From positions 1 to 64,000 of the IMG/VR virus record IMGVR_UViG_3300009155_000048: a DNA stretch of 64,000 nt. One strand, 5' to 3'. Shown in pieces: positions 33,105 through 58,994 of this stretch. The DNA comes from a virus. Below the pieces are notes generated by a model that did not search any database, was not told the DNA's origin, and saw nothing but the letters and a program-made list of their open reading frames with translations. The position numbers and the translations under genes are program-made. How positions within the stretch are numbered: position 1 is the stretch's first letter; each line of letters opens with the position of its first letter.

Positions 33105-34685
33105 ATGCTAAAGAAATATACAGACTTTTTATTTGAATCATTATTATTAGAATCTACTTTGATTTATTCTGATAAATTTAAGAATTTACTCAAAGAAATA
33201 GATTCTCCAATAGCTAAAGCTTTACAAGATATTGAAAGTAAAGACTTAACTGTAGCTAATAACTATATTGATGTATCTGATGATAAAGAACAAATTTCTT
33301 TTATACCGGATAGAAGAGCTCAACAAATATTAAGTCCTGAAAATTTAGAAAAATTTGCTATTTATAATGGTGATGGTGGTATACTAACTCATGGACCATC
33401 AAATACCGCAATCTTTGACTTATTAGATTATCAACCAACCGGTGATAGAATGTATAGACCAGAAGTAGGAACAAAAGGTGAAGTTTTATCAAAAGCAGTT
33501 GGACCATCATCTGGTAAAACATATCTTAAAATACAATTTCCAGATGGTATATCAGTTATCAACCAGGAAAAAATTAAATATGAAGATGTAAGTAAATTAC
33601 CATTTACACAAGGTCGTCAAAAAATCAGAATTGGTAGAGGAATTAAAGGTCTTCTAGCAGCAGGTGGCGCTACTTTTACTGATACCGAATTAGAAAAATT
33701 TGTAAATCTTTACAAAGCTGAAATTGAAAAGATGAATGATGTCTTTAGACATTTTGAGTTAGTGGAAGGTGATGATATTGCTAATTGGTATAATTATAAC
33801 AATTATGAATTAGGAAGAAATAAAGGGCCATTAAGTGGATCTTGTATGTGTTCAGTTCCATCAAGTTACTTTGAAATCTACACAAGTAATCAAAATAGTT
33901 GTGAGTTATTAATACTTAAAACAGAAGATGGTCAGAAAATAAAAGGTAGAGCATTAGTATGGAAATTAAAATCACCAGAAGGAATTACTTACATGGATAG
34001 AATCTATACACATAATGATTCTGATGTAGAGTTATTCAGACAATATGCTAAGAAGAATGGTTGGTATTATAAACCAAATAATAACCATATGACTAGTAAT
34101 GATATGGTATCACCTGATGGTTCAGTTGTTAGAATGGGAACATTAGTGGTTAAAGTTAAAAGAGGTGGATACGGAAGATATCCTTACTTAGATACACTTA
34201 AATATTATAACCCGGAAAATGGAACTTTATCCACTGAACAGATGGGTGATTGTTATACATTAGAAGACACAGGAGGTTCATATACAAATAATGATGATTG
34301 TGATTTTTGTGGTGGAGATGGTCGAGTAGATTGCCCGGATTGTGACGGAGATGGCGATTTTAGATGTTCAGAATGTGACGGAGATGGGGATATTGAATGT
34401 TCAGGATGTGATGGACATGGAAAAGTAGATTGCTCAAGTTGTGATGGAGAAGGAGAAGAAGAGTGCTCATCTTGTGATGGTACTGGAAAAGATGGTGATG
34501 ATGATTGCTCAGATTGTGATGGTAAGGGTAAAATTGAATGCTCAAGCTGTGATGGAGAAGGTAAGAAAGAATGTGATGAGTGTAGTGGCAATGGTACAAT
34601 TGGATGTGATAATTGTGGTGGAAATGGTAGAGAAGATTGCTCCAACTGCGATACTTCCGGAAGAGTAGATTGCCCAGAATGTTGA
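33105..34685 (+). CDS. SCM...RALxW...DRIY family protein (paralog 3) with C-terminal DnaJ-type zinc-finger array
   Basis: GPLSGSCM, GRALVW, YMDRIY, YPYLDT; 12 CxxC units. Confidence 0.75.
   Translation: MLKKYTDFLFESLLLESTLIYSDKFKNLLKEIDSPIAKALQDIESKDLTVANNYIDVSDDKEQISFIPDRRAQQILSPENLEKFAIYNGDGGILTHGPSNTAIFDLLDYQPTGDRMYRPEVGTKGEVLSKAVGPSSGKTYLKIQFPDGISVINQEKIKYEDVSKLPFTQGRQKIRIGRGIKGLLAAGGATFTDTELEKFVNLYKAEIEKMNDVFRHFELVEGDDIANWYNYNNYELGRNKGPLSGSCMCSVPSSYFEIYTSNQNSCELLILKTEDGQKIKGRALVWKLKSPEGITYMDRIYTHNDSDVELFRQYAKKNGWYYKPNNNHMTSNDMVSPDGSVVRMGTLVVKVKRGGYGRYPYLDTLKYYNPENGTLSTEQMGDCYTLEDTGGSYTNNDDCDFCGGDGRVDCPDCDGDGDFRCSECDGDGDIECSGCDGHGKVDCSSCDGEGEEECSSCDGTGKDGDDDCSDCDGKGKIECSSCDGEGKKECDECSGNGTIGCDNCGGNGREDCSNCDTSGRVDCPEC
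34299..34682 (+). repeat. Coding tandem CxxCxGxG repeats (mostly 11-aa period)
   Basis: CDFCGGDG, CPDCDGDG, CSECDGDG ... CPEC. Confidence 0.85.
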
Positions 34686-34695: not shown

Positions 34696-34875
34696 ATGGA
34701 AAATATTTTAACATATGAAGATTTTGTAACCGAGAGTTACAATAAACCAAGAAAGGGCATGAAAAGAAGATGGTCAACTAAATATAAGAAGGCCATCAAC
34801 TGTTCAAACCCCAAAGGCTTTTCTCAGAAACAATTTTGTAAAAGAAAAAGAAATGGTGGAAAATACAAATCTTAA
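34696..34875 (+). CDS. Unannotated 59-aa basic protein with capsid-targeting-like N-terminus
   Basis: MENILTYEDFVTES...WSTKYKKAINCSNPKGFSQKQFC. Confidence 0.7.
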   Translation: MENILTYEDFVTESYNKPRKGMKRRWSTKYKKAINCSNPKGFSQKQFCKRKRNGGKYKS

Positions 34876-35309
34876 ATAGATATAGAAGGATTGATTTTAT
34901 CAACTCTTTTTTCATGCCTACCACCCTCAAATTCCGTGTCTAAAAATACCTCTACTATTCCAATTGCTTCTTCAATTGAAATAAATCTAGCAGGTAAACA
35001 CAAAACATTAGCATTATTATGTTGTCTAGCTAGTGAAGCAATCTCACTATTCCAACAAAGAGCAGCTCTAATATCTCTCCATTTATTCGCAGTCATACAA
35101 ATACCATTTCCGGTACCACAGATTAGAATACCAATAACAGATTCTTCATCTAAAATTGAAGCAGTAACAGCATGTGCATAATCTGGATAATCTACACTTT
35201 CAGTAGATTCAGGTCCAAAATCAATTACAGGGACTCCTTGTTCGGAAATCCAATTAATTAAGGCTTCTTTCATTTCATAACCAGCATGGTCAGATCCAAT
35301 TGCAATCAT
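34872..35309 (-). CDS. rpiB: Ribose-5-phosphate isomerase B
   Basis: GSDHAG, VDYPD, CGTGNG, ARQHNNANVL, FEGGRH. Confidence 0.95.
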   Translation of the reverse strand: MIAIGSDHAGYEMKEALINWISEQGVPVIDFGPESTESVDYPDYAHAVTASILDEESVIGILICGTGNGICMTANKWRDIRAALCWNSEIASLARQHNNANVLCLPARFISIEEAIGIVEVFLDTEFEGGRHEKRVDKINPSISI

Positions 35310-36004
35310 AATAATTCATCTAATTTTCTATCTCTATTAATTTGGACATATTTAGCATTATATTCATTCACATAGTGAAGATTAATAAAGTTATTTTTAT
35401 TTAAAACAATTTGATAATTTAATTGTGATATAAATTTCGGCCCACTCAACGAAGTGGTGTTAATATTTGAAGCCACCGGTTCATCAATTTCATAATTATA
35501 ATTAAATGAGTCTTCTTTACCACAAATGATTGTCTTATCATCCCATCGCTTGAAAGCATCTATATAAACAGATATACCTCCAATTTCACCTAATTTATAA
35601 AAAGTATTACTATTACTTACCTTATTTATAGATTCATTGTGGAATAAAACAGATTCTTGAGCAAACATTCCAATTTGAGATGAACAAATGATAAAATCAA
35701 AGTTATTTTCTTTTAGATAATGATAGAGTACACCCATACCATCCGATTCGGATAAATTCATAACATCTAAGAATTCCTCTGATGTAGATTTCATTTCCTT
35801 AAATATTTCTTTATGAAATGATTGAGACAATTCTTGTATCAATAAAGAATTATATTTCGCATCAATATCTAATTTTAGATTAAATGCGTTTTGAAGTGAT
35901 ACCATTTCATCTCTAGTGATAGACATAGATACTTGTATTTTCTGTGATACCGGGAGTCTTTTATCCAACACTCCTAATTTTAATAATTCTGAATTAATTT
36001 GCAT
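35306..36004 (-). CDS. Truncated major-capsid paralog (C-terminal half) with RDRKLDELL tail
   Basis: SLLIQELSQSFHKEI and YKLGEIGGISVYID align to MCP SILVNELSQTISKQI and YPVGQIGDIQIYVD. Confidence 0.75.
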   Translation of the reverse strand: MQINSELLKLGVLDKRLPVSQKIQVSMSITRDEMVSLQNAFNLKLDIDAKYNSLLIQELSQSFHKEIFKEMKSTSEEFLDVMNLSESDGMGVLYHYLKENNFDFIICSSQIGMFAQESVLFHNESINKVSNSNTFYKLGEIGGISVYIDAFKRWDDKTIICGKEDSFNYNYEIDEPVASNINTTSLSGPKFISQLNYQIVLNKNNFINLHYVNEYNAKYVQINRDRKLDELL

Positions 36005-36200
36005 CTATTAAAGTAAATCTTTTTTCACCATCTTCTGATTCAGAATTCCAAATCTCATATGGTCTAACATACACCGAACCAAAGTTCAGTGACTTATACA
36101 CAACCAATCTTTCTTGTGTTTCTGTGTGTACTGCCATTGATATAATCTCATAGGTACCACCTTTGTAATGTTTATAAACTTGCCCCGGTAGTGGATACAT
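35994..36200 (-). CDS. DUF1653-family protein
   Basis: YKHYKGGTYEI..MAVHTET.E.LVVY...VYVRP...RF. Confidence 0.85.
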   Translation of the reverse strand: MYPLPGQVYKHYKGGTYEIISMAVHTETQERLVVYKSLNFGSVYVRPYEIWNSESEDGEKRFTLIDAN

Positions 36201-37152
36201 CTTTATTAGTTAATTTTTTACCAGTAGTTGGATCGTAATTTAGAATTAACATCTCAACACCTTTTGCTTGTTCTTTCTTTGTATCAGCGTTATTACCACC
36301 TTGTGCTGAACTTCTAAATACTTCTTTTTCAGTCCAAACATATTGGTCTCTTGGTAACAACTCTTCCAACAAAGGAAAATAATAATAAGAAAGCGACCAA
36401 CGACATTTAGTTGTTTTCAACAATTCCAACAATCTTCTATGAGAAGCTGGTCCAAATACACCTTCTTTATCAGCACCATACCAAAATAATCTCTTAGCAT
36501 CATCTTCACCTTTAGATTCATCAAATCGAGCATATGGTGGGTCTAAATACAAATAAGTATCTTCCGAGTCATACTTAGTAATCAATTCTTCAAAGTCAAT
36601 ATTATAAAACTCGGTGATTGATTGTAATTTTTGAGTATAAGTATTCTTCTTTAATTTAGAAATAAGAACTTCTAACTTCAAACGGTCTTTATCTTTTTTA
36701 TAACCGGAGAAACCACCACCTCTTGGGTACACGCTCGAAAAACTTGATGTAATTAAGAAGGCATAAATAGCAGCTTTTTCAAAATCACCAATTTCAAAAT
36801 TCATATTATCAAGAAATTCATTTTTTGTATATTCTTGATATACTTTTTTGTAAAAATCCCATTTTTTGATTGGATCAATTTCGTTTGTGTGTAACAAAGT
36901 ATTTTTAAGGTCCTCTAAATAAGGTAAAAATTTACCAGGTTCCGAACAACATTTATAAAGATTAACTTGATGACGATTTTTATCATTATAAATAACTGTA
37001 TCAAATTTCAAAGATTCATCATCCATATATGTGGCCATTGATCCAGAGAATGGTTCAATATATGTTTTTATTTCACTTTTTGGAATTTTTGAATTTATAA
37101 ATTCCTTAAATGCTGAGGAGCTTTTTCCTCCAAAATACCCATATAATGCCAT
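36172..37152 (-). CDS. Dam-like (D12 class) DNA adenine methyltransferase
   Basis: YFGGKS, YIEPFSG, YND.N, YLDPPY. Confidence 0.88.
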   Translation of the reverse strand: MALYGYFGGKSSSAFKEFINSKIPKSEIKTYIEPFSGSMATYMDDESLKFDTVIYNDKNRHQVNLYKCCSEPGKFLPYLEDLKNTLLHTNEIDPIKKWDFYKKVYQEYTKNEFLDNMNFEIGDFEKAAIYAFLITSSFSSVYPRGGGFSGYKKDKDRLKLEVLISKLKKNTYTQKLQSITEFYNIDFEELITKYDSEDTYLYLDPPYARFDESKGEDDAKRLFWYGADKEGVFGPASHRRLLELLKTTKCRWSLSYYYFPLLEELLPRDQYVWTEKEVFRSSAQGGNNADTKKEQAKGVEMLILNYDPTTGKKLTNKDVSTTGASL

Positions 37153-37188
37153 GTTAATTTTATTTTATTTTTTATTTATATCAGAATC

Positions 37189-38100
37189 CTATAAGAAGTT
37201 TTTATATTCTTCTTTAATAAAATTTTTATATCTAGTCATCAATTTTATACAATCATCATCTATTTTGTTACCTCTTGATATATTAGTAATTTTTTCAAGT
37301 GGTCTTAAATTATCTAAAGAATTAGCAATATGAAATGGAGTATCATCTTTGAATAAGGAGACATGAACTATATGGTCAATTTGCCATTTTTTTCCATAAT
37401 TTTCCCAACTAAGATCATCATAAAATTTACTCTCTAAATTTGATTTTAGTTCATCAGGAGTGTATTTTAGTAAATTATACGTTTTGTCTATTTTAAATAA
37501 AGTTTTTCTATTCAAATAGTTTTTTAATACTTGTCTCCAAGCATGAATATGTATATTCTTTTTATAATTATTTTTATCTTTTTGTCTTCTATCCTCAATC
37601 CTTTTAGAATTTCTGATTTTCCTATCGATATCTCTACAAGATTTACAAATGTGCATATATCTTCCATTTTTAATCAAATAGTCCGACAATTCTCTGTTAA
37701 TATTACATTTTATACAATTTATGTAACCTCTTTCTTCTATTTCTTTTGTTATCTTATCATATTTTTCTTTTGTTTTTAACTTATTTTCTTCACTTCTATT
37801 GAATTTTTCATCACCATAGACTTCTTTAAGTGTTAGTTTATTTTTAAATTGAGCACAAGATGAATTACAAGTGTAGATATTATATCTTTTAATATTTTTA
37901 TTATATTTTTGGTAAGCCAAAAACTTCTCACTTCCACAAATATCACACTTAACATTTATTTTTAAATTTGACTCAACTGGTAGTTGATTTACTGGTATTT
38001 CAATTTTATGATTACACTTTATATCCTGATATCCTAAAGATTTATAATATTCTATATTTAGGTGTGATATTGTTGTTTTAATGTATTCATCCAGAATCAT
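37189..38100 (-). CDS. HNH homing endonuclease with N-terminal zinc/DNA-binding domains
   Basis: SWENYG..WQIDHI...NSLDNLRPL...N; CDICG. Confidence 0.8.
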   Translation of the reverse strand: MILDEYIKTTISHLNIEYYKSLGYQDIKCNHKIEIPVNQLPVESNLKINVKCDICGSEKFLAYQKYNKNIKRYNIYTCNSSCAQFKNKLTLKEVYGDEKFNRSEENKLKTKEKYDKITKEIEERGYINCIKCNINRELSDYLIKNGRYMHICKSCRDIDRKIRNSKRIEDRRQKDKNNYKKNIHIHAWRQVLKNYLNRKTLFKIDKTYNLLKYTPDELKSNLESKFYDDLSWENYGKKWQIDHIVHVSLFKDDTPFHIANSLDNLRPLEKITNISRGNKIDDDCIKLMTRYKNFIKEEYKNFL

Positions 38101-38308: not shown

Positions 38309-38992
38309 TTACCACCAAAGCCAATTTGCGCTCTTGTAATTATCTACAAATTCTACATCTTTATCTTTATATAAAATATTATGTAAAGTTTGTTTTGATT
38401 TTGCTCTTTGAGAACGATTCAAAGTTTTTCTAAAGTGTTTAGGAGCATTGTGATAATTTCTTTTCTCATCATAAAAATTATGAAGAAGTTTAGATTCTAA
38501 TTCAGATTCCTCTTGTTGAAGAATTTCATCAATTAACTTAACTTTAGTTCTATACTCTTTAACATAGGTAATATCCCAATAAAAACTAGGAACAGTACAA
38601 TAGTACCAAATGCCCCATCTACGGGTGTATGGGTCTTCTTTGAAGTGTTTTTGTACTTGAGAAGGAAGTAAATCATAAGCATATTGACTGATACTTGAAA
38701 TGTGTGGCTTGTGATAAATTGAAAAAGTCTTCTTTTTATCCCAGTCAAATAACTCAATTCTACGAGCAAATGAAGTAGTACCAAAGTTATCACAGATAGT
38801 CCAAAAAACCCAATCATCTTGACGGTTTTGGATATCTTGACGTGGTTCAAGTTTGGCAATATAACCAATAAATTCTGGTTCTGGAAGTTCTATCCATCCA
38901 AGGTTACGTTGTGCGTTTCTATTTTCGAGCAACTCTTTTTTAAGGCGAAGGTATTCCTTCTCTTTAAGAAATTGTTTATTTCTCTTTTTCAT
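38309..38992 (-). CDS. Hypothetical protein
   Basis: 227-aa ORF ending NWLWW. Confidence 0.6.
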   Translation of the reverse strand: MKKRNKQFLKEKEYLRLKKELLENRNAQRNLGWIELPEPEFIGYIAKLEPRQDIQNRQDDWVFWTICDNFGTTSFARRIELFDWDKKKTFSIYHKPHISSISQYAYDLLPSQVQKHFKEDPYTRRWGIWYYCTVPSFYWDITYVKEYRTKVKLIDEILQQEESELESKLLHNFYDEKRNYHNAPKHFRKTLNRSQRAKSKQTLHNILYKDKDVEFVDNYKSANWLWW

Positions 38993-39062
38993 TATGTTTT
39001 GTTAGTTTTTTACTAACAAAACTTCAATTCCTTATTGTAGATATATTTTTTCATAATGTATT

Positions 39063-39092
39063 AAAAAACCCACTTAATTTTTAAGTGGGTTT
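39063..39092 (-). terminator. Terminator downstream of tmRNA
   Basis: AAACCCACTTAA...TTAAGTGGGTTT. Confidence 0.75.
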
Positions 39093-39098
39093 GATTTG

Positions 39099-39451
39099 TG
39101 GAGGTGTCGGTGACGAAACCGAGTCTTCCTTAGTTAACGCAAATTATTCATTCACAGGCTTAGAGAATTTTTCTAAATTCTTCAAAATATAAATTTTTAT
39201 TTTTACGAGTTTCAAACTTAAACTTTCTCGGAACTTTTACAGAGTTCTTACTGTTGGAAACCTATTAAGCTAATACAGCTACTTCGTTTGCCTTTAAGAT
39301 GTTGTTGCGTAGAGCAAATACTAAATCTTCTTTGCCTGCTACTTCAGTTGTTTTGCCGTTTAAAGCGTTTGATACCGTGATTTAATCGGTTAGATATCAT
39401 CCGATGCCTGCATAATTAACCTTACCCTACGAATCAATACTAATCACCCCC
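39099..39451 (-). ncRNA. ssrA: tmRNA; tag ORF 39357-39265 encodes (A)GKTTEVAGKEDLVFALRNNILKANEVAVLA
   Basis: 5' GGGGGTG pairs with 3' CACCTCC-A including G3.U70; T-arm; TAAAC-GGC resume context; double stop TAA TAG. Confidence 0.9.
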
Positions 39452-39519
39452 GTGTTAATTACTTTTACAAAGATATATATAATATCCTAAAAATCAAAAA
39501 AAGTTTAATTTTTTAAAAA

Positions 39520-40035
39520 TTAAAATGGAACATCATCTTTCTTAAATGAACCACTCTTTTTACTATCATAGTAAAAATCAACAGTTAATAATGGATGACC
39601 TTCTTTAGTTTCCCATAAATCCATTTCGGATTCATATTGAATAAGTGTATCAGTTGTTAACTTCTTCAAAAAACCCATAATTTTCATTAATTTATTAAAT
39701 CTCTCAGTTTTGTTCAAAACAAACTGAATACTTAAATCATAACCATCAGTAGTAACATAATAGTTTTCAATATTAGCTAACTTAATCATTTGTCTAATTA
39801 AAGATGCTAAATGTTCTAAAACATCATCGGATGTTGGATCATTGTCTCTACGATCGTAGTCTTCTTCATCTTCGTCATCATAATCATCATCATAGGGGTC
39901 ATCATACATAGATTCTTCATCTTCACCACCATAGTATTCACTATCACCAAAATCAGAGCTATCTGATGTATTATCAAATTCATCCTCTTCTCCGCGTTCT
40001 TCATTTAGAAGTTCTTTATAGTTTTTTAGTTTCAT
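39520..40035 (-). CDS. Acidic hypothetical protein with capsid-targeting-like N-terminus
   Basis: MKLKNYKELLNEE; D/E-rich. Confidence 0.6.
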   Translation of the reverse strand: MKLKNYKELLNEERGEEDEFDNTSDSSDFGDSEYYGGEDEESMYDDPYDDDYDDEDEEDYDRRDNDPTSDDVLEHLASLIRQMIKLANIENYYVTTDGYDLSIQFVLNKTERFNKLMKIMGFLKKLTTDTLIQYESEMDLWETKEGHPLLTVDFYYDSKKSGSFKKDDVPF

Positions 40036-41678
40036 TATTCAAGTTCTATTTTTATATGATCATCGTAGAATTTAATATCTGGATCTAATTTATATGTAGT
40101 AAACAATTGTTGTAATTGTGTTAAGTCTTTATAGAAGTGATTAATATCATTATCATTTATTTCTAAATCAATAACTAATTTACCATTCTCACCTTTTATA
40201 CTATCAACATTATAGAAAATTGATTTCTTAAATTGCTTGATTAATCTATTATACTTTCTAGCAATTGCATCATCAAATCCGATCTTTCTTTTAACCTCTA
40301 ATTTATCCCAATTAGCTGCAACACAAGCTTGAGCCAATCTTTCTAAATAAGTAATATTTTGCAATTCATCATGTGTGTGTTCATTAAAATAACCAACCGA
40401 TACGTTAGTACACTCTCCAATCATATCAATAAAATTAGCAGAATCCGTAAATACACCAGTTGGATCTAAATTTAATTTCAATCCACTTTTATTTAATTCT
40501 TTACAAAGAGACTCTGCAAATTCATTAGAACAACAAGGAATACCCATCTGTGATGTGATTACCGAATAGTAATTTCTTCTATCAAAAGATACCATTTTCT
40601 TAATATCCTTCATAAATTCATACGAATCATAGTCCATTGCAACTTTACCAGAACCAACACCACCTCTTTCTTCACCATAGAAGAACCAATATACACCGGG
40701 TATTTGTTTATCAATCATATACATAAGAATAGCAACTCCTGATTTATCATCAGCTCCTAAGATAGAAGTACCATCCGTCATTATAAAATCTTGACCATCT
40801 TTTTTATATCCAACTAATCCAACTTTATCTTTTGTTCTAGAAGCAGTATCTAGGTGACAAGTAAAAGCGGTATCGGAGTTACCAATTATTGTGTAATAAT
40901 TACCATATTTATCTCTTGTTAATCCAGGTGTTATAAAAGGAACAACTTCTTCCTCATGTCCCATCGGATAAGTTTCGGTAACAAGTGAAATAAATGTTTC
41001 TCTAACATTACTTGGTTCGTACTTAAACTCTCTTGGTGTAATTAGGTTACCAACTTTAGACTCTTTACCCGATATTTTGCCAATAATTTTATTATAAGAT
41101 TGTGTAAATTTAAAAATTTGGTCTTGTGTAAACTTTTCTTTGAAGAAGTATCTAATAAACTGAGCCACTTTAATTTGACCAGGTTTAGATCCGGTCTTAA
41201 TATCAAAATACCATTCTTTATCCGAAATGTCTAATTCTGTAATACCCATTACATTTTTAATATCTGGGTTAGAATCCAAAGAGTATAAATCCCAAACAAT
41301 ATCACTACCAGGTCTTATCTTATCTAACATTTGCCAGAAATCATCAGTGAACTTAATTAAAGTTGGACCACTTTGTTGCTCTATTTGTTGGTTTTTGTAA
41401 AATCCCATTTCCTTTTTTGTTTCCTTTTTATTAGCCTTTTCATTGAAGATGTGTACAAATGCTTCTAAATCATCTTCATTCACATAATCATTTCCTAAAA
41501 CTTGCTTTAATAAATCAGAAGTCATATTTTCTTTTCCCAAAGTCACTCTTTGTGAAGAAGGAACATCACTTCTATTCATTGAAGCTTGAAGACCGTTTAT
41601 TATTTTTCTAAAGAAATGTGAATATCCCATTTCATCAAAAATATCTAATGCTCCTTTAGTCAAATAAACTGCCTTCAC
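40035..41678 (-). CDS. M28/M20-like zinc peptidase with N-terminal extension
   Basis: FTCHLDT, LGADDKSG, GEERG, SFDRR, FTDSA, NEHT. Confidence 0.8.
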   Translation of the reverse strand: MKAVYLTKGALDIFDEMGYSHFFRKIINGLQASMNRSDVPSSQRVTLGKENMTSDLLKQVLGNDYVNEDDLEAFVHIFNEKANKKETKKEMGFYKNQQIEQQSGPTLIKFTDDFWQMLDKIRPGSDIVWDLYSLDSNPDIKNVMGITELDISDKEWYFDIKTGSKPGQIKVAQFIRYFFKEKFTQDQIFKFTQSYNKIIGKISGKESKVGNLITPREFKYEPSNVRETFISLVTETYPMGHEEEVVPFITPGLTRDKYGNYYTIIGNSDTAFTCHLDTASRTKDKVGLVGYKKDGQDFIMTDGTSILGADDKSGVAILMYMIDKQIPGVYWFFYGEERGGVGSGKVAMDYDSYEFMKDIKKMVSFDRRNYYSVITSQMGIPCCSNEFAESLCKELNKSGLKLNLDPTGVFTDSANFIDMIGECTNVSVGYFNEHTHDELQNITYLERLAQACVAANWDKLEVKRKIGFDDAIARKYNRLIKQFKKSIFYNVDSIKGENGKLVIDLEINDNDINHFYKDLTQLQQLFTTYKLDPDIKFYDDHIKIELE

Positions 41679-41687
41679 TTGTATATA

Positions 41688-42080
41688 TTATTTTTTAGAT
41701 ACGGTTATTTCATAAGCATTGTTATAATCAACCTTAACTTGTCCAGGATTCATACCTTGTTCTTTTTTAACAAACTTCTTTTTACAGTAAACAATAAGAA
41801 CATCTTCTTTATCCGACTTAGAATTCTTAGCAGATATTTGTGCTACCTTTTTAATAACTTCTTTTGTTGGTATCATATCTTTAACTTTAATTAAAACATG
41901 GCTTCCAGGAACACCTTTGGCATGAAACCAGTAATCCTCATCTGATGATAATTCAAATGTTACATAATCATTAGACTTAGCATCTTTACCTTGATAAACA
42001 ATAAACCCATCAACATCTAATTTCTTATAGTTTGGTTTATCTAATTTCTTAGACTCATTAAAATTCTTTAAGTATTTCAT
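41688..42080 (-). CDS. Stand-alone NFACT-R (RqcH/FbpA C-terminal, DUF814) domain protein
   Basis: GKDAKSNDYVT...DYWFHAKGVPGSHVLI...YCKKKFVKK..G..PGQV. Confidence 0.88.
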   Translation of the reverse strand: MKYLKNFNESKKLDKPNYKKLDVDGFIVYQGKDAKSNDYVTFELSSDEDYWFHAKGVPGSHVLIKVKDMIPTKEVIKKVAQISAKNSKSDKEDVLIVYCKKKFVKKEQGMNPGQVKVDYNNAYEITVSKK

Positions 42081-42243: not shown

Positions 42244-43554
42244 ATGTCTAAACTAATGAAACTTAACGAAATTCAAGACGAGTCTGTATTAAATGATATC
42301 TTTAATAATGAGATAATAATATTTGAAGATATACAAGGTAGTAAAATATATGTAAACTGGAATGGTTCCAATTTTACAATTAAATCAAAATCATTATCAT
42401 CGGATCCTATCAATATGATTGATTTAGCTATGCAAAATTATTATAATAATGCTATTAGTTTTTTTAATAATCTTGATAACAGAGTTAAAGGATTGATTAA
42501 TAAAAAATGGTGGTTTTGTTTTGAATTTTTCCCAGATAATCAACCAGCAAATATTGAATACAATAGAGTTCCTAAAAATAATTTAGTCTTAACTTCTATC
42601 TACAAAGGTAACAAATTTGATTATACCATTGATGAATTAGAAGAATATGCTAGATTACTTGATGTTGATGTAATTCCGGTAATTTTCAAAGGCAAACTAA
42701 ATGAAAAAGTTATAGAAGCAATTAAATATTTCTTAAACACAAGTGAGTCAGACTTAGAATATGTATTTGGCGAGAAGTCATTTTCTTACTTCTTCTATAA
42801 AATATTAAGTCCACAAACTCAAAATTCATTTTTGATGAATGAAGACTTTCAAAAAAATGTTGAGAAGTTAATAATAAGAATTGATGGTAAAGATGTATCA
42901 TTTGAAATTTTGAATCCATTATATAAAAGAATATCGGACACAAACTCAACAGACTTTGTTGAAATTTACACACTTATATTAGTTAATTTCTTGAATTTCT
43001 GTCAATCAATAGACTTTAATCAAATTAAAGTAAAGGGAAATAAAAGAGATGAAGTTTATATCTATTTAATTTGTAAGTTATTCAATATGTACTTATCGGA
43101 AGTAAAAGATGATATTGCTAATTTTCAATTTACTGTACCCGAATTCTTTGATAAAGATAAATTTAGAATTAACACAGAGTTGATTCCAAATAAAATGACT
43201 AAACAATTCATTTCAGAGGATAAAAAGTTTGAATATATTTTCAAAGTAATTTTAGGTAGTTTCAATAAGAAGAGAAAGAAACCAATTGGCGTATTCACAG
43301 AAGGAACAATTAACATATTTAACAATTTTGTACAAATGATACAAGAAAAAATTGATGAATTCTTTAACAAAAAAAGTGAGATTGAATTAACCAGAAGTGG
43401 ACTAATTGACTTCTCACAATGGTTTGATGTTAAATATGATGTGGATGCGGAAGAAAATGTTTATCCAGATGTATATACCGAATTAGAAAAAGGTAAGGAA
43501 AAAGATAAAAAAGGAACAAAGGGTGGAAAGTTTGGAGAATATGAAAAGAAATAA
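42244..43554 (+). CDS. RNA-ligase (Rnl2)-like fold protein lacking the motif I lysine
   Basis: FEDIQGS (motif I-like), FCFEFF, LLDVDVIPVIFKG, VEKLIIR. Confidence 0.55.
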   Translation: MSKLMKLNEIQDESVLNDIFNNEIIIFEDIQGSKIYVNWNGSNFTIKSKSLSSDPINMIDLAMQNYYNNAISFFNNLDNRVKGLINKKWWFCFEFFPDNQPANIEYNRVPKNNLVLTSIYKGNKFDYTIDELEEYARLLDVDVIPVIFKGKLNEKVIEAIKYFLNTSESDLEYVFGEKSFSYFFYKILSPQTQNSFLMNEDFQKNVEKLIIRIDGKDVSFEILNPLYKRISDTNSTDFVEIYTLILVNFLNFCQSIDFNQIKVKGNKRDEVYIYLICKLFNMYLSEVKDDIANFQFTVPEFFDKDKFRINTELIPNKMTKQFISEDKKFEYIFKVILGSFNKKRKKPIGVFTEGTINIFNNFVQMIQEKIDEFFNKKSEIELTRSGLIDFSQWFDVKYDVDAEENVYPDVYTELEKGKEKDKKGTKGGKFGEYEKK

Positions 43555-43714
43555 TATAGGTGGAGTATTTAAGGTTAATGCAACGGTAACAAAAACTATG
43601 ATTGAAGACTTAGAGAAACAACACGGGATTGATTTAGTCCAAAGATTGGAGAGTTTACTTGTTTTATTAACAGTTAGAAGACACCGAATTGAAAAAATAT
43701 TATCTAAAATTTAA
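43541..43714 (+). CDS. Mini-protein: major-capsid spine-helix fragment plus RRHRIEKILSKI tail
   Basis: 13/32 ungapped identities to MCP IEVSSALRRTEIEDIKANTGMDIVQKMESILV. Confidence 0.78.
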   Translation: MKRNNIGGVFKVNATVTKTMIEDLEKQHGIDLVQRLESLLVLLTVRRHRIEKILSKI

Positions 43715-43845
43715 TGCCATCTGCTCTTATATCAAAACCAAATAATTGGAGTATTTTATTGAAATATAAGAGAAGAGAAAAGTTGACTAAAATCTTAAAT
43801 AAAATATTAAAAACAATTTCGGTAAATTACATTATAATTGTATGA
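43714..43845 (+). CDS. Unannotated 43-aa peptide with RREKLTKIL motif
   Basis: TAATG and ATGA coupling on both sides; MPSALISKPNNWSILLKYKRREKLTKILNKIL... Confidence 0.55.
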   Translation: MPSALISKPNNWSILLKYKRREKLTKILNKILKTISVNYIIIV

Positions 43846-45065
43846 TCCAAGTAAAAGAGTATAAACCGAAATCTAAATACAACATAAGAAAAAAGTTAGA
43901 GTCAAAAAGATACAGTGTTCAATTTCTACCCGAACTTCTAATTCAAGAATCTCTTAATAAAAACTTCACATACAAAGAAACTAAGCTTAAAACAGCTTAT
44001 CTAATTGATATCACACACAATTTATTACTTAAATACTACTTCAAGAAAGATAACTTATTTAATCTATCATCAGTAGTTCTTAAAGAAAAATATGGTTATC
44101 TATATAACTATTATATGGACTATCTTGTTTCTAAAGACATTCTTAAACTAGTAAAAAATCACCAAAAAGGTAAAAATGCCAGAATCTATAAATTAAATGA
44201 AAAGATTATTAATGGTAAAATCACTCGATATAAAAATGAGGATTCAATCCTATTAAAGAAATACAAGAATGCTGTATCTTTAATTGAGAAACAAGATATA
44301 GACAGTAATACAATCAATCCAGATGTAAAGAGAAAATTAGTTGATGATTTATTTCATGTTCAAATTCAATTTGATAAGGCTATATTTTTCTTAGATTCAA
44401 CTCTACAAGATGTAGATATCTATAATAGAAATAAGTATAGTGTTGAATGTATAAATGATAAACACATATTCTATCACTTTGATAACTATGGCAGAATGCA
44501 CACAAATTTTACTATTTTAAAATCTTTTATTAGAAAAAATTGTCTTCTTATTAATGGAGAAGAAACCAGTGAAATTGATATCAAAAATAGTCAACCATTA
44601 TTTCTCTGTAAGTTAATAGAATCCGATGGTTTAATAATTGTCAATACTGATGAATTTGAACTTTTCAAATTTTTGACATATAATGGTAAGTTCTATCAAT
44701 ACTTAATGGATAATTCCAAGTATAGAGATAGAAAAAATGTTAAAGAAATGATTTATAAGGTTTTTTTTGGTAAGAACTTCAAAAGCAAAGGTGATGATTT
44801 ATTTAAATCATTATTTCCTACAATACATGAATTTATCAAAATCTACAAAAAAGAACATGGTGATTATAGAATTTTAGCACATGACCTTCAAAATTTAGAA
44901 AGCAATCTAATTTTTAACAAAATTGTAAAGGAGATCATGTATATATACCCTGAGGTAAATTTAATAACTATACATGATAGTATTATTTGTAATACAAAAT
45001 ATAGAGATGTGGTTGAAAAGATTTTCCACAAAAACTTAGAAAAAGAATTTCAAAAAATAATATAA
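43842..45065 (+). CDS. Small family-A-like polymerase-fold protein
   Basis: GRMHT, EIDIKNSQP (motif A-like), RKNVK...FFG (B-like), LQNLES, IHDS (C-like). Confidence 0.6.
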   Translation: MIQVKEYKPKSKYNIRKKLESKRYSVQFLPELLIQESLNKNFTYKETKLKTAYLIDITHNLLLKYYFKKDNLFNLSSVVLKEKYGYLYNYYMDYLVSKDILKLVKNHQKGKNARIYKLNEKIINGKITRYKNEDSILLKKYKNAVSLIEKQDIDSNTINPDVKRKLVDDLFHVQIQFDKAIFFLDSTLQDVDIYNRNKYSVECINDKHIFYHFDNYGRMHTNFTILKSFIRKNCLLINGEETSEIDIKNSQPLFLCKLIESDGLIIVNTDEFELFKFLTYNGKFYQYLMDNSKYRDRKNVKEMIYKVFFGKNFKSKGDDLFKSLFPTIHEFIKIYKKEHGDYRILAHDLQNLESNLIFNKIVKEIMYIYPEVNLITIHDSIICNTKYRDVVEKIFHKNLEKEFQKII

Positions 45066-45069
45066 TATA

Positions 45070-45240: not shown

Positions 45241-45267
45241 GGTTATCTTTTTTAATATATACCTGAT

Positions 45268-45843: not shown

Positions 45844-45876
45844 AAAAGAGAGTTAAATTAATTTAACTCTCTTTTT
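45842..45876. terminator. Bidirectional terminator
   Basis: AAAAAGAGAGTTAAAT/ATTTAACTCTCTTTTT. Confidence 0.75.
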
Positions 45877-52344: not shown

Positions 52345-54096
52345 TTAGTTAAGTAATCCAGGAGTATCAGACACTTTAATTGTCATATACTGCTTTTGAG
52401 GATACCAACCCACTTCAGCAACTGCGTATCTAGATCTTAACAACATACGTGGAGCGAATGTAGCTTCAGAGATGATACTGATTGACTGAGCCATTAAGTA
52501 AGGTACGAAGATGATACCTGGTTGATCAGGATTGTTCTTTCTACCAATAACGATACGGTTATCGTTATACTTCATGTAAGGGTCAACATAGATTTGGATA
52601 TCACCGATTTGACCAACTGGATACAATTGACCAGAACCGTTGATTTTAGATTTAGTTGGATTAATAGTATATCCAGCGACATCCATTAAAGCTGCAGCTA
52701 AACCTCCGTTAGTTACTGCGAATTGTGCAGGACCAACACGACCTTCTGTTGCAATATAGTTAGAAGCGTGAACCATCTTAGTGATCAACTTACGTTGAAC
52801 AGCGTGTGTAGTTTCACCACCAACTTGAGTTTGAGTGTAAAGAGTATCTAAGTCAAAAATAGTTGGACTAGAGATGTTATTGCTATAAGTAGCACCAGAT
52901 GCTGGAGCTGAAGATCTGTTCAAGTCACCCATTTCAAAGATTTTAGATACAATTTGTTTAGAAATTGTTTGAGACAATTCGTTAACAAGGATAGATTCCA
53001 TTTTTTGAACGATATCCATACCAGTGTTAGCTTTGATGTCTTCAATTTCAGTTCTTCTAAGAGCTGAAGATACTTCAATAGTACCAACCGCGATAGACTT
53101 AGTAGAAACTTTTGGTCCAATTACACCAGCATAAGTCAAATCATCTTCAGCACGACTCATTGGGTATCTACCATTCTGAGAGTTTGTAGAGAAGTTTGTA
53201 GAGAAACCTGGTAATTGATCTTCTAATGCAGAAATCATAGTAACAGTTAAGTTAGAAGTACTTGAGAAAGTAAGACCAGGAATAGCTGTTAATTGAGACT
53301 GGATTGTAGCAGAAGGAGTAAATGTATTTTGAGTTTGGTCAAAAGCTGCTGCTGCTGGGTTATAAACGTTAGCAATTGTTTGTGAACCAATAGTAGCATT
53401 TGCTTGTCTAAATGCTCTGAAGATAGGAAGACCATCGATACGAGAGTAACCTAAGAATTCAAGAACGTTAGCTTTAGAACCACTAATAGATGTACCTGTT
53501 GAAACAGATGCAGCATAGTTACCTAAAGTAAAGTAAGCCTTAGTACCAGTAGCACTTTGGAAACCACCAACTGTTAAAACGATATCAGTTGAAGAAATTG
53601 CAGTTGAAACTTTAGTACCAAACGCACCACTTTGTAACATACCAGCTGTATCAGTTGAGTTAGTTGATACGATTTTAAATACTTGAGGTGCACCATATGT
53701 AGTATCAACATCATCATATTGGAAGTCAATATACAATAAGTCTAATTTTGGACCTGGTGAAGGTTTTACAGCAACTAAATCTAAACCGATTGTTTGAGCT
53801 GCGATTTTCATAGCAACTGGTAATAAGTTTTGACCTAAGTCACCAGAACCAGCCGAACCTGAGTTACTTGACCAGTTAGTACCAAGTGTAGTACCTGATA
53901 AAGTTGATGGTTGAGGAGATGTAACTGCACCCATACCTTGGATTGTTGCGTTTACATACGCATTTTCATTGATAGAGTGGAACTCTGCGTATTCTGACAT
54001 CCAATCAAGTCTGTCTTCACCAGCAACGCCCATGTTCTCTAATACTGGAGACCACTTCTTCAATGCTTTTTGTTTGTCTATTCTAATGTGTGACAT
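52345..54096 (-). CDS. Major capsid protein (T4 gp23-like)
   Basis: KKWSPVLE, IAAQTIGLDLVAVKP, VDPY, PY...F.PRMLLRSRY; follows protease gene. Confidence 0.92.
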   Translation of the reverse strand: MSHIRIDKQKALKKWSPVLENMGVAGEDRLDWMSEYAEFHSINENAYVNATIQGMGAVTSPQPSTLSGTTLGTNWSSNSGSAGSGDLGQNLLPVAMKIAAQTIGLDLVAVKPSPGPKLDLLYIDFQYDDVDTTYGAPQVFKIVSTNSTDTAGMLQSGAFGTKVSTAISSTDIVLTVGGFQSATGTKAYFTLGNYAASVSTGTSISGSKANVLEFLGYSRIDGLPIFRAFRQANATIGSQTIANVYNPAAAAFDQTQNTFTPSATIQSQLTAIPGLTFSSTSNLTVTMISALEDQLPGFSTNFSTNSQNGRYPMSRAEDDLTYAGVIGPKVSTKSIAVGTIEVSSALRRTEIEDIKANTGMDIVQKMESILVNELSQTISKQIVSKIFEMGDLNRSSAPASGATYSNNISSPTIFDLDTLYTQTQVGGETTHAVQRKLITKMVHASNYIATEGRVGPAQFAVTNGGLAAALMDVAGYTINPTKSKINGSGQLYPVGQIGDIQIYVDPYMKYNDNRIVIGRKNNPDQPGIIFVPYLMAQSISIISEATFAPRMLLRSRYAVAEVGWYPQKQYMTIKVSDTPGLLN

Positions 54097-54130: not shown

Positions 54131-54184
54131 TATATAGTATCCTATTTTTCCTTAATTTTTCAAGGGTGGATTTTTTATAGATTA
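54131..54184 (-). promoter_or_regulatory. Promoter with CTATAAAAAATCC-N31-TATATA (major capsid gene)
   Basis: Exact 29-nt repeat with 11241-11269. Confidence 0.6.
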
Positions 54185-56293
54185 AAGATTTTTGAATCTC
54201 TCCATAATTGCAGTTACATCACCATCAGACAATTTGTCTTCTTGAATTAACGCATTATGTTCAACTAATTTTTTAGTTACAGATTCATTTTTCTTGAATG
54301 GTCTTGTTAACCAGAAATGTTCAACTTTTGATTCAGTTGTTAAGTCTGGGTACAATCTAGCTTGCGATAAGATAGACTTTTTAGAAGATTCATTCAATTG
54401 TGACCAGATTGGCTTAATGTTTTCAGGCATCAATCTAATCAATCTCTCTTCAAGAGATTCATTTTTAACAGATAACGCTTCTCCAATCATCTTTAACACA
54501 TCAGAACTAGTGAAATAACTCTTTTCGTTTATGTAAAGTTTTACTTGTTCTTGCTCCTCGTTTGTTAAGCTGTAATAGCTATCAACTTGGGACTTGTTTA
54601 AGAATTTTAAGAAATGTAAATCATTGGACTCAGAAACTTTACGTTTTTTAGCTTCTTCAATTAATTTATCAATTTGTTGAGATAATTCTGTATCAGAATT
54701 GCCTTCGAATTTAGATTCTTCTCCATAAGGATTTTCCTCTTCTTTTTCATGTGCCATTGGCATTCCCGGCATTCCTTCTTCTTCACCATATGTACCTTCT
54801 TCTGAAGCTACTAAGTGAGGCATACCTTCTTCTTCCTCTTCTTCATATGCCATTGGCATTCCTTCTTCTTCTGAAGCAATCATTTCAAATCCTACTTCTT
54901 CTAAAGTTGGGAATGAATTACCTTTACTTTCATTTAATTTATTACCATTTAATTTCTCAGCAATTAAACCCGCGTAAGAAACAGTTTTATCTAAGTTTTC
55001 AGCAATATACTCAGAGTAAGCGATGTTATCATCTAAGTGTTCAGCAATGTATTCAGAGTAAGCGATGTTACCTTCTACATGCTCAGCTAAATATTCAGAA
55101 TAAGCAATAGAGTTATCTACATGCTCAGCGATATACTCAGAGTAAGCAATATTCTTATCTAAGTTTTCAGCGATGTACTCAGAGTAAGCAATATTCTTAT
55201 CTAAGTTTTCAGCGATGTACTCAGAGTAAGCAATATTCTTATCTAAGTTCTCAGCTAAATATTCAGAATAAGTGATATTCTTATCAACATTCTCAGCTAA
55301 ATATTCAGAGTAAGAAATATTTTTGTCTAAGTTTTCAGCTAAGTACTCAGAATAAGTGATGTTCTTATCTAAGTTTTCAGCTAAGTATTCAGTGTAATTA
55401 ACAGCCTTTTCTAAGTTTTCAGCTAAATAATCATTGTGAGAGATCAACTTATCAGTAGTTGATTTCAATGATTTATTTTCATTAACCACAACTTGAACTT
55501 TTTCAGCTAAGTAATCTAAATACTTAACCATTTGAGAGTTAGTCTTATTAAGTTCTTCATAGTACTCAAGAAGTTGCTCTAATTTTTTCGGATTGATGTT
55601 ACCTGATTTAATAGCAGATTGTGCAGCTTTCTTAGTAGTAGCGATTTCATTAATCAAATACTTAGAATAGTCAGCTAATTGCTGTTTGGTAACGAAGTCA
55701 TTCTGGTTCATATTGAATAGTTCGTTTATTTTTGACTCATCGGACATTTCATATATCCTAAAGTTAGTTTTATTGGAAAACCCATATGATTCATTTATGG
55801 ATTTCATTCTAGCTGAAGCAAATCCTGGGTCAGCAACAATGTCGTAAGTAAACAATTTCTTTAAAGTAACAGTACCATCTGATTCAGTGATACCAGCAGC
55901 TCTTGAAGAAACGAATACAGGACAACCATCATCAACTAAAGATTTAGCTTCTTTACCCCAATAGGTATTCAATAATTTAATCTCACCCTCAACACGATTA
56001 GATTCTTTAACATAAGAAGCTTTTCTAATAATGTGTGAAGCGCGAGATAATGATGTATCAAATACATCTGGGTGATCGAATTCACCATAAACAACACCCA
56101 TATTTTGAATACGGTCATTAAGTTCTTCTAAACAAGGAATAAACTTATCTGCAGTGTAGATTCTTTCATTACGGTTTTTAACACCGAACTCAGTAAAAAT
56201 ACCACCTAAGATATAGTCTTTCTTGCCACCAGAAACTTGAACGCTCTCCTTTAATGGGTTTGAGTTGTTTTCAACGATTAAGATTGGTTTCAT
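54182..56293 (-). CDS. Prohead protease (gp21-like) fused to repeat scaffold/core protein
   Basis: KNRNERIY, GEFDHP, VSSRAAG, YDIVADPGF; then 14-aa repeats and acidic region. Confidence 0.9.
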   Translation of the reverse strand: MKPILIVENNSNPLKESVQVSGGKKDYILGGIFTEFGVKNRNERIYTADKFIPCLEELNDRIQNMGVVYGEFDHPDVFDTSLSRASHIIRKASYVKESNRVEGEIKLLNTYWGKEAKSLVDDGCPVFVSSRAAGITESDGTVTLKKLFTYDIVADPGFASARMKSINESYGFSNKTNFRIYEMSDESKINELFNMNQNDFVTKQQLADYSKYLINEIATTKKAAQSAIKSGNINPKKLEQLLEYYEELNKTNSQMVKYLDYLAEKVQVVVNENKSLKSTTDKLISHNDYLAENLEKAVNYTEYLAENLDKNITYSEYLAENLDKNISYSEYLAENVDKNITYSEYLAENLDKNIAYSEYIAENLDKNIAYSEYIAENLDKNIAYSEYIAEHVDNSIAYSEYLAEHVEGNIAYSEYIAEHLDDNIAYSEYIAENLDKTVSYAGLIAEKLNGNKLNESKGNSFPTLEEVGFEMIASEEEGMPMAYEEEEEEGMPHLVASEEGTYGEEEGMPGMPMAHEKEEENPYGEESKFEGNSDTELSQQIDKLIEEAKKRKVSESNDLHFLKFLNKSQVDSYYSLTNEEQEQVKLYINEKSYFTSSDVLKMIGEALSVKNESLEERLIRLMPENIKPIWSQLNESSKKSILSQARLYPDLTTESKVEHFWLTRPFKKNESVTKKLVEHNALIQEDKLSDGDVTAIMERFKNL
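54955..55440 (-). repeat. About 12 coding tandem repeats of 42 nt (YSEY[LI]AENLDKNIA)
   Basis: Directly visible in DNA and protein. Confidence 0.9.
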
Positions 56294-57287: not shown

Positions 57288-58994
57288 TTAGAATTCAAAT
57301 TCAGCACCTTCACCACCAGCTTCTCCGCCACCACCTTCACCACCCGGTTCTGGACCAGCCTCCGGAGTTGTTTGAGCTCCTCCTTCAGGGGCAGCTTGAG
57401 CACCACCTTCGGCACCAGGTTCACCACCTTCAGCACCAGCTTCAGCACCACCTTCTGGGCCAGCACCACCGCCTTTACCAGATTTAATCCAATAGGCTTT
57501 ATTTTCTTCTTTTTCTTCTGGTGTCAATTTCATAACTTTATCAATTAAATAATCAATATGGAAATATGGTTGGCCATCAGCAGTTTGAATTCCCAACATA
57601 GTGCCTAAAATACTAGCTCTCTTTTCAAAATTTGCCAACTTTTTCCACTCTTCAAATAATTGATTTGAATTAAAATTGATATCTACTTGGTTTAAGAATA
57701 TCTCATCATTTTTCAATTCTGGAAATTCCATACACATTTGTAATTTAAGTGGTTTAACAATTAATTCTTTATAGTTAGCTCTTAAACGGTTAATAAAGTT
57801 ATTAAATTTAACTTCATCTCTAGTCATCTCAGCCGCATCACTAAATACATTACCACCACCATTTTCTTTATCAAATCTTTGGAAAGGAATTTTAGATGCT
57901 CTTTTTAAGATATTAAAGAACCAAGTTAACATATCATTCTCATTTAAGTTGTGACCTTCCGGTGAGACTAATTCCATACCAGGTGTACCAGCATCTCCTT
58001 CTGGGAACCACACTTGTTTATTATATGGTAAATGTTTTCTACCATTTATAGTAACAGTACCCAATGTATCATCCCATTCAACTTCTTCCGAGTAATCAGC
58101 AATTAATTGACCAATTTGTTCTTCAGCACGTTGTCTAGGTAAACCTTTAATTGGAATAGTAAACTTTTGATAAACAGTAGCGTTGATAATATTGAACATA
58201 ATTTTAGTTTGTTCAAGAATCTTTAACTGATTATATGGTTTAATTAAACCCTCAAGATATGAAGTTTCAGAATAATCATTCTGTGTTGAATATGAAATAA
58301 ATACCAATTGAGAATCTAAGAAGATTCTTCTTAATTGTGGATCCTCTGGATATTGAATCCAAAGATTACCAATAGATGGCTCATATGCTGGAACTAATGT
58401 TTCGGGTCTTAGTCTATTAAAGTGAATAATATTTTTTTTCTTATCATCCCAAACAATTTCAATTGCAATATAACCATCAATTAAGAAGTCTTTCATCATA
58501 TTCCAAGCAGTGATATTATCACCAAATCCAAATCTATTATAAATAATTTCAAAATACTCTTGATACTTATCCTTAATATCTTGTGAGTAGTCATTTGATA
58601 AAGGTCTAGGTGAACAAAAATCATTCTCATTATAGATAATTGCCTCATCGGAAACCGATGAAACAAAATCTCTTAATTCATCCTTAATTGAATATTCTCT
58701 TAAAATTCTTCTCTTATCAGCATAACTTCTATCTAAATACGGAACCGACTTTCTATTAAGAACAGACGCAACCGCTTTGGATGAAAAGAAATCATACATC
58801 GAATTATTTTTCTGACTGTACGGATCCTCATTAATACCAACACCGACAGTGTTTCTGATAATCATATCATCATACTTCATACCGAAGTTTGATAAATTAC
58901 GAAGCAATCTATTAAAAAGACCCTTATTCTCAACCGCAGATGAGATATAAGTAGAATTTTGATTTTGTTGATTTAGCGGATTATAAGAAGCCAT
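57288..58994 (-). CDS. Portal protein (T4 gp20-like)
   Basis: SYLE..IKPYNQLKILE, ASKIPF.RF, EMTRDEVKF..FI.RLR; G/E/A/P-rich tail. Confidence 0.92.
   Translation of the reverse strand: MASYNPLNQQNQNSTYISSAVENKGLFNRLLRNLSNFGMKYDDMIIRNTVGVGINEDPYSQKNNSMYDFFSSKAVASVLNRKSVPYLDRSYADKRRILREYSIKDELRDFVSSVSDEAIIYNENDFCSPRPLSNDYSQDIKDKYQEYFEIIYNRFGFGDNITAWNMMKDFLIDGYIAIEIVWDDKKKNIIHFNRLRPETLVPAYEPSIGNLWIQYPEDPQLRRIFLDSQLVFISYSTQNDYSETSYLEGLIKPYNQLKILEQTKIMFNIINATVYQKFTIPIKGLPRQRAEEQIGQLIADYSEEVEWDDTLGTVTINGRKHLPYNKQVWFPEGDAGTPGMELVSPEGHNLNENDMLTWFFNILKRASKIPFQRFDKENGGGNVFSDAAEMTRDEVKFNNFINRLRANYKELIVKPLKLQMCMEFPELKNDEIFLNQVDINFNSNQLFEEWKKLANFEKRASILGTMLGIQTADGQPYFHIDYLIDKVMKLTPEEKEENKAYWIKSGKGGGAGPEGGAEAGAEGGEPGAEGGAQAAPEGGAQTTPEAGPEPGGEGGGGEAGGEGAEFEF

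Follow-up and report, generated by a model that had tools for sequence, protein, structure and literature searches.

Results

A reduced capsid protein gene follows a DNA methyltransferase gene

The DNA analyzed here (the window) comprises 64,000 nucleotides (nt), positions 1 to 64,000 of the IMG/VR virus record IMGVR_UViG_3300009155_000048, a fragment of 107 kb whose completeness is put at 19% by CheckV. DNA of this phage was found in freshwater and lake metagenomes. On the minus strand of the window, at positions 35306..36004, lies a gene for a protein of 232 amino acids (aa), termed mini-MCP, which is a truncated paralog, with the HK97 fold, of the gp23-type major capsid protein (MCP) and whose C-terminal end reads NRDRKLDELL. 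The MCP, which represents the parent family of mini-MCP, is a 583-aa protein encoded on the same strand (52345..54096; PF07068, expectation value (E) 1.8e-27). The MCPs nearest to it (64% identity) are those of the uncultured phage genomes LR745206 and LR756502, of 635-642 kb.

Mini-MCP belongs to a minus-strand operon whose first gene encodes Dam, a D12-class N6-adenine DNA methyltransferase (36172..37152; PF02086, E 5.1e-16; phrog_56). Dam is followed by a DUF1653 gene (35994..36200; PF07866, E 1.5e-17), by mini-MCP and by rpiB, encoding ribose-5-phosphate isomerase B (34872..35309; PF02502, E 1.1e-58). Stop and start codons overlap along this series, mini-MCP sharing 11 nt with the DUF1653 gene and 4 nt with rpiB, while the DUF1653 gene also overlaps Dam. 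A first, sequence-only reading of this DNA had placed the gene between Dam/DUF1653 on one side and rpiB on the other, which the domain matches bear out. Its description of a metabolic operon applies, however, to this locus only: among 22 distinct related IMG/VR loci, retrieved with a sub-family profile, rpiB adjoins mini-MCP in none and the DUF1653 gene in 4. The DUF1653 gene is a lineage-specific member of the operon and rpiB a lineage-specific addition, also present in one other related locus as judged by the pattern of open reading frames (ORFs). In LR745206 and LR756502, orthologs of 243 and 261 aa directly follow Dam, with neither DUF1653 nor rpiB.

Mini-MCP is an HK97 core descended from a gp23-type capsid protein

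Direct comparison by BLASTP aligned residues 23-165 of mini-MCP with residues 340-521 of the MCP (E 3e-9), with a single gap of about 60 aa. Alignment of the two families by hhalign, using 21 mini-MCP orthologs and 17 MCPs, extended the match to mini-MCP 21-200 (codons at 35405..35944, minus strand) on MCP 338-560, with a probability of 98.9% and an E of 2.2e-17. The collinear part covers the spine-helix region, the A domain with the exception of a stretch of about 65 aa, and the last strands of the P domain. Residues E373, Q376, I382, Y492, G495, Y503 and D505, which are invariant in the MCPs, are retained in the mini-MCP family. The sequence-only reading had described a paralog that follows the C-terminal half of the MCP collinearly and lacks the N-terminal half; both statements hold, similarity being confined to MCP 338-560, and the two peptide pairs that it quoted were located at the positions given, with identities of 8/15 and 10/29 (counted by eye). 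In 50,697 phage records, tblastn with the 232-aa sequence returned nothing at E<=1e-3, and relatives were seen there only with profiles. No Pfam family, the Gp23 model (PF07068) included, was matched at E<=0.01. A match to the PHROG family phrog_28442 was obtained with an E of 1.1e-5.

The AlphaFold2 (AF2) model built from the 21-ortholog alignment has a predicted local distance difference test score (pLDDT) of 83.5 and a predicted template modelling score (pTM) of 0.78. Foldseek, which had been proposed as a check in the first reading, was run against PDB and BFVD, and its leading matches were all HK97-fold capsid proteins. In VIA-align, the best match was T4 gp23 (Z 13.8, root mean square deviation 3.4 over 205 residues, model 4-214 on chain 105-521), followed by T4 gp24 (Z 12.1, 200 residues) and HK97 gp5 (Z about 12, chain 126-382); overall, Z for HK97-fold matches ranged from 11 to 13.8 over 184-207 residues. 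The model contains a P domain with the long spine helix and an A domain in which two helices accompany a central sheet. Taken together, these results show that mini-MCP is an HK97 core, made of the P domain and a shortened A domain, which descends from a gp23-type capsid protein.

The N-arm and E-loop, which in HK97-fold lattices link subunits both inside a capsomer and from one capsomer to the next, are outside the region of homology. MCP residues 1-337 correspond, in the light of the T4 structures, to the propeptide, N-arm, E-loop and insertion domain of gp23-type proteins. As 205 of the 232 residues of mini-MCP align across gp23 105-521 and HK97 gp5 ~125-383, no space is left for an N-arm or an E-loop. 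To judge from the aligned ranges, the highly conserved first 20 residues probably substitute for the strand leading into the E-loop. By size (232 versus 583 aa) and by architecture (no match to MCP 1-337), mini-MCP is not a gp24-type vertex protein, in agreement with the first reading. No longer or fused form of mini-MCP, such as a Dam-mini-MCP fusion, was found, which is weak evidence.

Mini-MCP genes form an old family under selection

Twenty-nine homologs of mini-MCP, nearly all of them full length, share 51-100% identity. The ratio of nonsynonymous to synonymous substitution rates (dN/dS) of mini-MCP was 0.28 in comparison with an ortholog of 95% identity and 0.26 with one of 53% identity. 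Among 1.8 billion cluster representatives, a profile search recovered 160 proteins at E<=1e-3; among the matches listed, most measured 200-260 aa and aligned end to end, while full-length MCPs aligned by their C-terminal part only. In a tree of the common region, all 20 full-length MCPs grouped in one (starred) clade together with three mid-length matches, with a Shimodaira-Hasegawa-like approximate likelihood ratio test (SH-aLRT) support of 96, and all 101 mini-MCPs of 190-280 aa fell outside it. Since the tree separates them from the full-length proteins, the mini-MCPs represent an old paralog family and not recent copies of the MCP of each genome. Compared with one relative, dN was 0.375 for mini-MCP, 0.09 for the homologous part of the MCP, which thus evolves about four times more slowly, and 0.14 for Dam. 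Mini-MCP is a selected working gene and not a remnant.

A distant, untagged homolog (profile E 1.1e-5) was found in the cultured Tenacibaculum phage PTm1: ORF-116, a 191-aa 'hypothetical protein' (AP019524.1, 84446-85021), which has MazG on one side and a helicase on the other and lies some 130 kb away from the head genes of that phage. The PTm1 record labels none of its products as virion proteins.

Mini-MCP stands at the end of a conserved same-strand block that begins with head genes

In the related loci the genes follow one another on one strand in the order protease-scaffold, MCP, NFACT-R, 547-aa peptidase-like protein, acidic 171-aa protein, at times a 227-aa protein, Dam and mini-MCP. 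Dam lies immediately upstream of mini-MCP in 20/22 loci, often overlapping it, and the MCP gene, likewise in 20/22, is encoded on that strand at a distance of 4.3-7 kb upstream; the protease-scaffold gene was found upstream, within the 8-kb flank, in 15/22. The genes between MCP and Dam (38309..42080 in the window, minus strand) have homologs, with order and strand preserved, in 21-22 of the 22 loci, apart from the 227-aa protein (9/22). In the window they encode the NFACT-R protein (41688-42080), the 547-aa peptidase-like protein (40035-41678), the acidic 171-aa protein (39520-40035) and the 227-aa protein (38309-38992), all on the minus strand.

The block is headed by a gene for a 703-aa fusion of prohead protease and scaffold (54182..56293, minus strand; phrog_207, E 4.2e-31, with a weak Peptidase_S77 match), itself preceded by the portal gene (57288..58994), so that the order is portal, protease-scaffold, MCP. 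The scaffold-like part of the fusion contains about a dozen tandem units of ~13 aa (YSEYLAENLDKNI-like) and an acidic stretch rich in Glu and Met.

The distance from MCP to mini-MCP is 16 kb in the window as against 4.3-7 kb, with four to five genes between, in the relatives. The window keeps their order, interrupted by a 9.6-kb plus-strand block (42244-51888) and by an HNH endonuclease gene (37189-38100, minus strand). Both are insertions relative to 20 related loci. The latter is HNH/endonuclease VII-like; the former contains an S-adenosylmethionine (SAM)-lyase-like gene, tagged ORFs (described below) and others, and encloses a minus-strand glycosyltransferase gene (45880-46623).

Neither of the complete relatives, LR745206 and LR756502, was found to have another full-length MCP paralog; only mini-MCPs and short pieces were seen. 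Each of the two carries a second truncated MCP-like ORF (224464-224823 in LR745206 and 241384-241644 in LR756502, both on the minus strand; 271 and 252 aa) matching MCP ~380-528, as well as ORFs of 169-179 aa that copy MCP ~7-58 and 84-115, in the propeptide and N-terminal region.

The Dam/mini-MCP unit and the head genes carry different promoter-like boxes

A promoter-like box, TATAAATAAAA (37170..37180, minus strand), begins 28 nt ahead of the start codon of Dam. Six copies of it occur in the 107 kb, four of which lie 25-28 nt before start codons, namely those of a DnaB-like helicase, of a 174-aa gene ahead of the DNA polymerase, of Dam and of the glycosyltransferase; in the window these sites are at 18226, 28552, 37180 and 46648 (-). 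Dam thus has its box in common with units for replication and DNA modification. A second box, AATATATAC, is present in 18 copies in the 107 kb, 15 of them upstream of genes including those for the portal, the protease-scaffold, a 1372-aa virion protein and a SAM-lyase-like protein, at a spacing of 11-41 nt, or 78 nt in one case. As the box before Dam differs from the one before the portal and protease-scaffold genes, the Dam/mini-MCP unit belongs to another signal class than these head genes. Of 20 distant loci, only one preserves an exact TATAA[AT]TA box ahead of Dam; looser TATAAnTAA-like boxes are found in these loci.

In two lake metatranscriptomes, contigs were found over the operon, one of them spanning the rpiB/mini-MCP junction (35192-35342); such contigs come from RNA libraries, in which carry-over of DNA is possible. 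Depth was 20-31 for contigs of the MCP gene and 3.36 for the one contig near mini-MCP with a stated depth, at the DUF1653/Dam junction (36120-36258), values that rank neither the level nor the timing of expression.

A C-terminal tag is common to mini-MCP and many small proteins

The last nine residues of mini-MCP, RDRKLDELL, conform to a motif, R-[DE]-x-[KR]-[ILV]-x-x-[ILV]-[ILF] within about 15 residues of the C-terminus, hereafter the tag. They lie inside a helix predicted at residues 217-231, where pLDDT is lower (52-77); residues 217-232 are encoded at 35309..35356 of the minus strand. Most members of the mini-MCP family end in R-D-x-K-I-D-x-[IL]-L, the tag is present in 75 of 99 short family matches, and R224 forms the one invariant column of a 77-sequence alignment. 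In LR745206, 68 of the 80 occurrences of the motif are at most 15 residues from a C-terminus, where about 11 would be expected. The 68 tagged ORFs of that genome are mostly of 66-243 aa, and the ten largest of those scanned match no Pfam family, one of them matching a PHROG of unknown function.

Eight further ORFs of the window end in the tag. Two short tagged ORFs copy pieces of the MCP: a 68-aa ORF (1202-1408, minus strand) corresponding to MCP ~513-561, with counterparts of 61-79 aa in related genomes, and a 63-aa ORF (43523-43714, plus strand) corresponding to MCP ~338-371, with counterparts of 73-97 aa. The former, an MCP-hairpin mini-gene, is translationally coupled to the downstream gene for a tagged 157-aa protein (739-1212, minus strand) with the invariant end SYLRDxKIDTLLK. 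The model of the 157-aa protein (pLDDT 82.6) shows a barrel resembling those of tail tubes and Hcp, followed by a 25-residue C-terminal helix; its best structural matches reached Z 9.5 and a Foldseek E of 2e-3, and the top 48 rows were nearly all tube or Hcp chains. With moderate support from the model, this protein may thus be a look-alike of tail-tube/Hcp proteins. The 13-aa tag is the sole match between its family and mini-MCP. A 16-aa BLAST match had raised the possibility that it supplies the missing N-terminal half of the MCP, which was rejected on the grounds of an hhalign probability of 0.2% against the MCP family and of the tail-tube/Hcp-like model.

Two ideas were considered for the tag. 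It does not match the C-terminus of the protease-scaffold. As for a possible sliding-clamp-binding motif, comparable to those of T4 gp43, gp33 and gp55, no gp45 family match was obtained in the 107-kb record and the gp55-like protein is untagged. Dam carries no tag either.

Among the remaining tagged proteins, those of 193 aa (46697-47278, plus strand) and 211 aa (50426-51061, plus strand) match no family; in the latter, Walker-A-like GEGKT and Walker-B-like ILFIDD strings were noted by eye. Small tagged ORFs at 6789-6944 (-), 62167-62337 (-) and 56414-56863 (+) resemble the prohead protease weakly and below significance (BLAST E 0.19-0.36); in a 149-aa ORF among these the tag is internal and phrog_207 is matched with an E of 0.0027. 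Another of the three, of 56 aa, immediately follows the gp55-like late sigma gene.

Other features of the window

On the plus strand (33105-34685) is a gene for a 526-aa protein, with a weak BSD2_CRD match, whose C-terminal 130 residues are made up of cysteine repeats of the CxxCxGxG type. Several neighbors of this gene encode proteins that begin with MK.LK.F.E-like peptides.

Discussion

We found in the genome of a very large, uncultured freshwater phage an MCP paralog reduced to the core of the HK97 fold. Because it is devoid of an N-arm and an E-loop, mini-MCP is unlikely to be an ordinary subunit of the capsid lattice. Without the arms that link subunits it would probably build no shell and would instead be a soluble look-alike of the MCP core, made from the transcription unit of Dam, a DNA-protection gene, and not from those of the portal or the protease. 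Such a protein could take over a surface to which the MCP otherwise binds. The preferred target would be a host immune sensor recognizing the conserved capsid fold, in which case mini-MCP would be a counter-defense bait. We estimate at roughly one in three the probability that mini-MCP is an off-lattice mimic of this kind, most likely acting as a bait for MCP-binding host sensors. This reading, which agrees with the capsid decoy suggested in the first reading, is favored circumstantially by the coupling to Dam, the signal class distinct from that of the head genes, the faster divergence, the existence of a second tagged virion look-alike and the published evidence on sensors, bacterial sensors having been described that recognize the conserved core folds of the MCP and of the tail tube (bioRxiv 10.64898/2026.01.04.697583). 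The location of the PTm1 homolog away from the head genes was also counted in favor of an off-lattice mimic. The tag might in addition give mini-MCP and the other tagged proteins a handle to one common partner. A clade-wide system, in which tagged look-alikes (the MCP core, MCP pieces and the tail-tube-like barrel) would be handed, with any sensor bound to them, to that partner, mini-MCP being the capsid bait co-transcribed with Dam, is a tentative extension that we consider doubtful.

Several observations weigh against the bait. A conserved MCP core could trigger such sensors instead of blocking them. Throughout a wide clade the gene occupies one and the same syntenic position, on the strand of the MCP gene and 4-7 kb downstream of it, which looks more like that of a core morphogenesis gene than that of an accessory counter-defense gene. 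The TATAAATAAAA box equals the T4 late-promoter consensus, so that late expression is as possible as the non-late expression suggested in the first reading. A larger paralog is detectable by BLAST for only one of the 68 tagged ORFs of LR745206, namely mini-MCP, so that an equation of the tag with a bait system is not general at the sequence level. In the literature searched, no capsid-protein decoy was found, nor was any description of the mini-MCP family in work on capsid decoys or truncated MCP paralogs in phages.

A close rival, slightly less probable in our view, is a minor head or assembly protein that joins or caps MCP capsomers: a much reduced counterpart of gp24, a protein filling special positions, or one that as a holdase or chain terminator limits off-pathway polymerization of the MCP in a very large capsid, the tag then anchoring it to a component of the prohead. 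Such a role would suit the position of mini-MCP at the end of the same-strand block that runs from protease-scaffold and MCP to Dam, with the MCP 4.3-7 kb upstream in 20/22 loci, an arrangement that echoes the T4 gene order 21-22-23-24. It would also suit the conservation of the gene in the manner of a core gene, the retention of the MCP-invariant residues of the A-domain hairpin (Y..G.......YVD) and the absence from LR745206 and LR756502 of another full-length MCP paralog able to act as vertex protein. However, the N-arm, E-loop and insertion domain of gp23 and gp24 are missing, the gene with which mini-MCP is translationally coupled encodes a DNA methylase, not a head protein, the box before Dam is unlike that of the portal and protease-scaffold genes, the tag is common to dozens of small orphan proteins, and the PTm1 homolog lies outside the head module. 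The bicistron of Dam and mini-MCP, kept in 20/22 loci, could alternatively point to a capsid-docking adaptor for Dam, similar in concept to the Dar proteins of phage P1, in which the MCP-like body would attach to the inside of the capsid or to the prohead and carry along the methylase or tagged cargo, DNA being protected during packaging or at the next injection. There is a precedent in phage P1, whose capsid carries 55 DarA-Hdf pairs on its inner face (PMC12810830), but Dam is untagged and, as weak evidence, neither a fusion of the two proteins nor a longer form was found, and we consider an adaptor improbable.

Still less probable, in our opinion, is a weapon against competitors, that is, a dominant-negative MCP core poisoning the capsid assembly of co-infecting related phages or of satellites that hijack capsids. 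A capsomer core without linking arms would correspond to the classic design of a poison subunit, and the fast divergence is in line with this; yet the phage would endanger its own assembly, neither satellites nor specificity are indicated by any evidence, and the literature searched yielded no precedent. The short MCP-like pieces scattered in this genome and in its relatives might suggest that mini-MCP is itself without function, a decaying relic of an MCP gene that was duplicated or recombined. This is refuted by the pattern of conservation, and we give it hardly any credence: orthologs are intact and full length at 51-100% identity, dN/dS is 0.26-0.28, the large family has conserved termini and tag, the model is confident, and contigs from RNA libraries extend over the gene.

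MCP paralogs have so far been known as parts of the shell, as is T4 gp24. The MCP paralog described here is reduced to the core of its fold, bears a tag common to dozens of small proteins of these genomes, is coupled to a gene for DNA protection and has persisted across a broad clade of the largest phages known. Should mini-MCP be a head protein, it would represent a new way of building or controlling very large HK97 capsids. Should it serve as bait for an immunity that senses capsids, it would be the first decoy found in phages to derive from one of the phage's own structural proteins, and the tag would mark further candidates. In either case the tag defines a large group of proteins with a presumed common partner.

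Comparison with known systems

The closest known protein is T4 gp23 (PF07068; PDB 7VRT, 5VF3, 6UZC), which is the best structural match of mini-MCP and shares with it the core of the fold and common descent. Mini-MCP differs by a length of about 40% of that of gp23, by an A domain ~65 aa shorter and by an additional C-terminal helix carrying the tag. T4 gp24, which forms pentamers at the 11 non-portal vertices of the virion, is a near-full-length copy of the MCP, with insertion domain. Like mini-MCP, gp24 (PDB 1YUE, a solved chain of 390 residues) is an MCP paralog encoded downstream of the MCP on the same strand. Mini-MCP, however, is neither near full length nor provided with an insertion domain, its 232 residues representing MCP 338-560 only, and its gene, which 4-16 kb of other genes separate from that of the MCP, is coupled to Dam, before which a separate promoter-like box is found.

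Encapsulins keep the E-loop, which mini-MCP lacks, and form closed shells. They are small HK97-fold proteins of 250-280 residues (PDB 9FY6, 7S20) with a structural Z of about 11 against the model of mini-MCP, the solved chains (235-302 residues) aligning from about residue 25 nearly to the end. In contrast with encapsulin systems, the tag is carried in mini-MCP by the shell-like protein itself and not by a cargo.

With DarA/Hdf of phage P1 (PMC12810830) the likeness is conceptual only, in that anti-restriction is tied to the head; the link is made here by gene order alone, these proteins are not reported in that article as having the HK97 fold, and we claim no relation of sequence or fold to mini-MCP. 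A conceptual likeness also exists with DSAD1, which acts against DSR2, in that a phage protein stops a sensor from reading an abundant virion protein (PMC11087589). DSAD1 is not described there as a copy of the sensed protein; a tagged mimic derived from the phage's own capsid protein, as proposed here, would be a different design.

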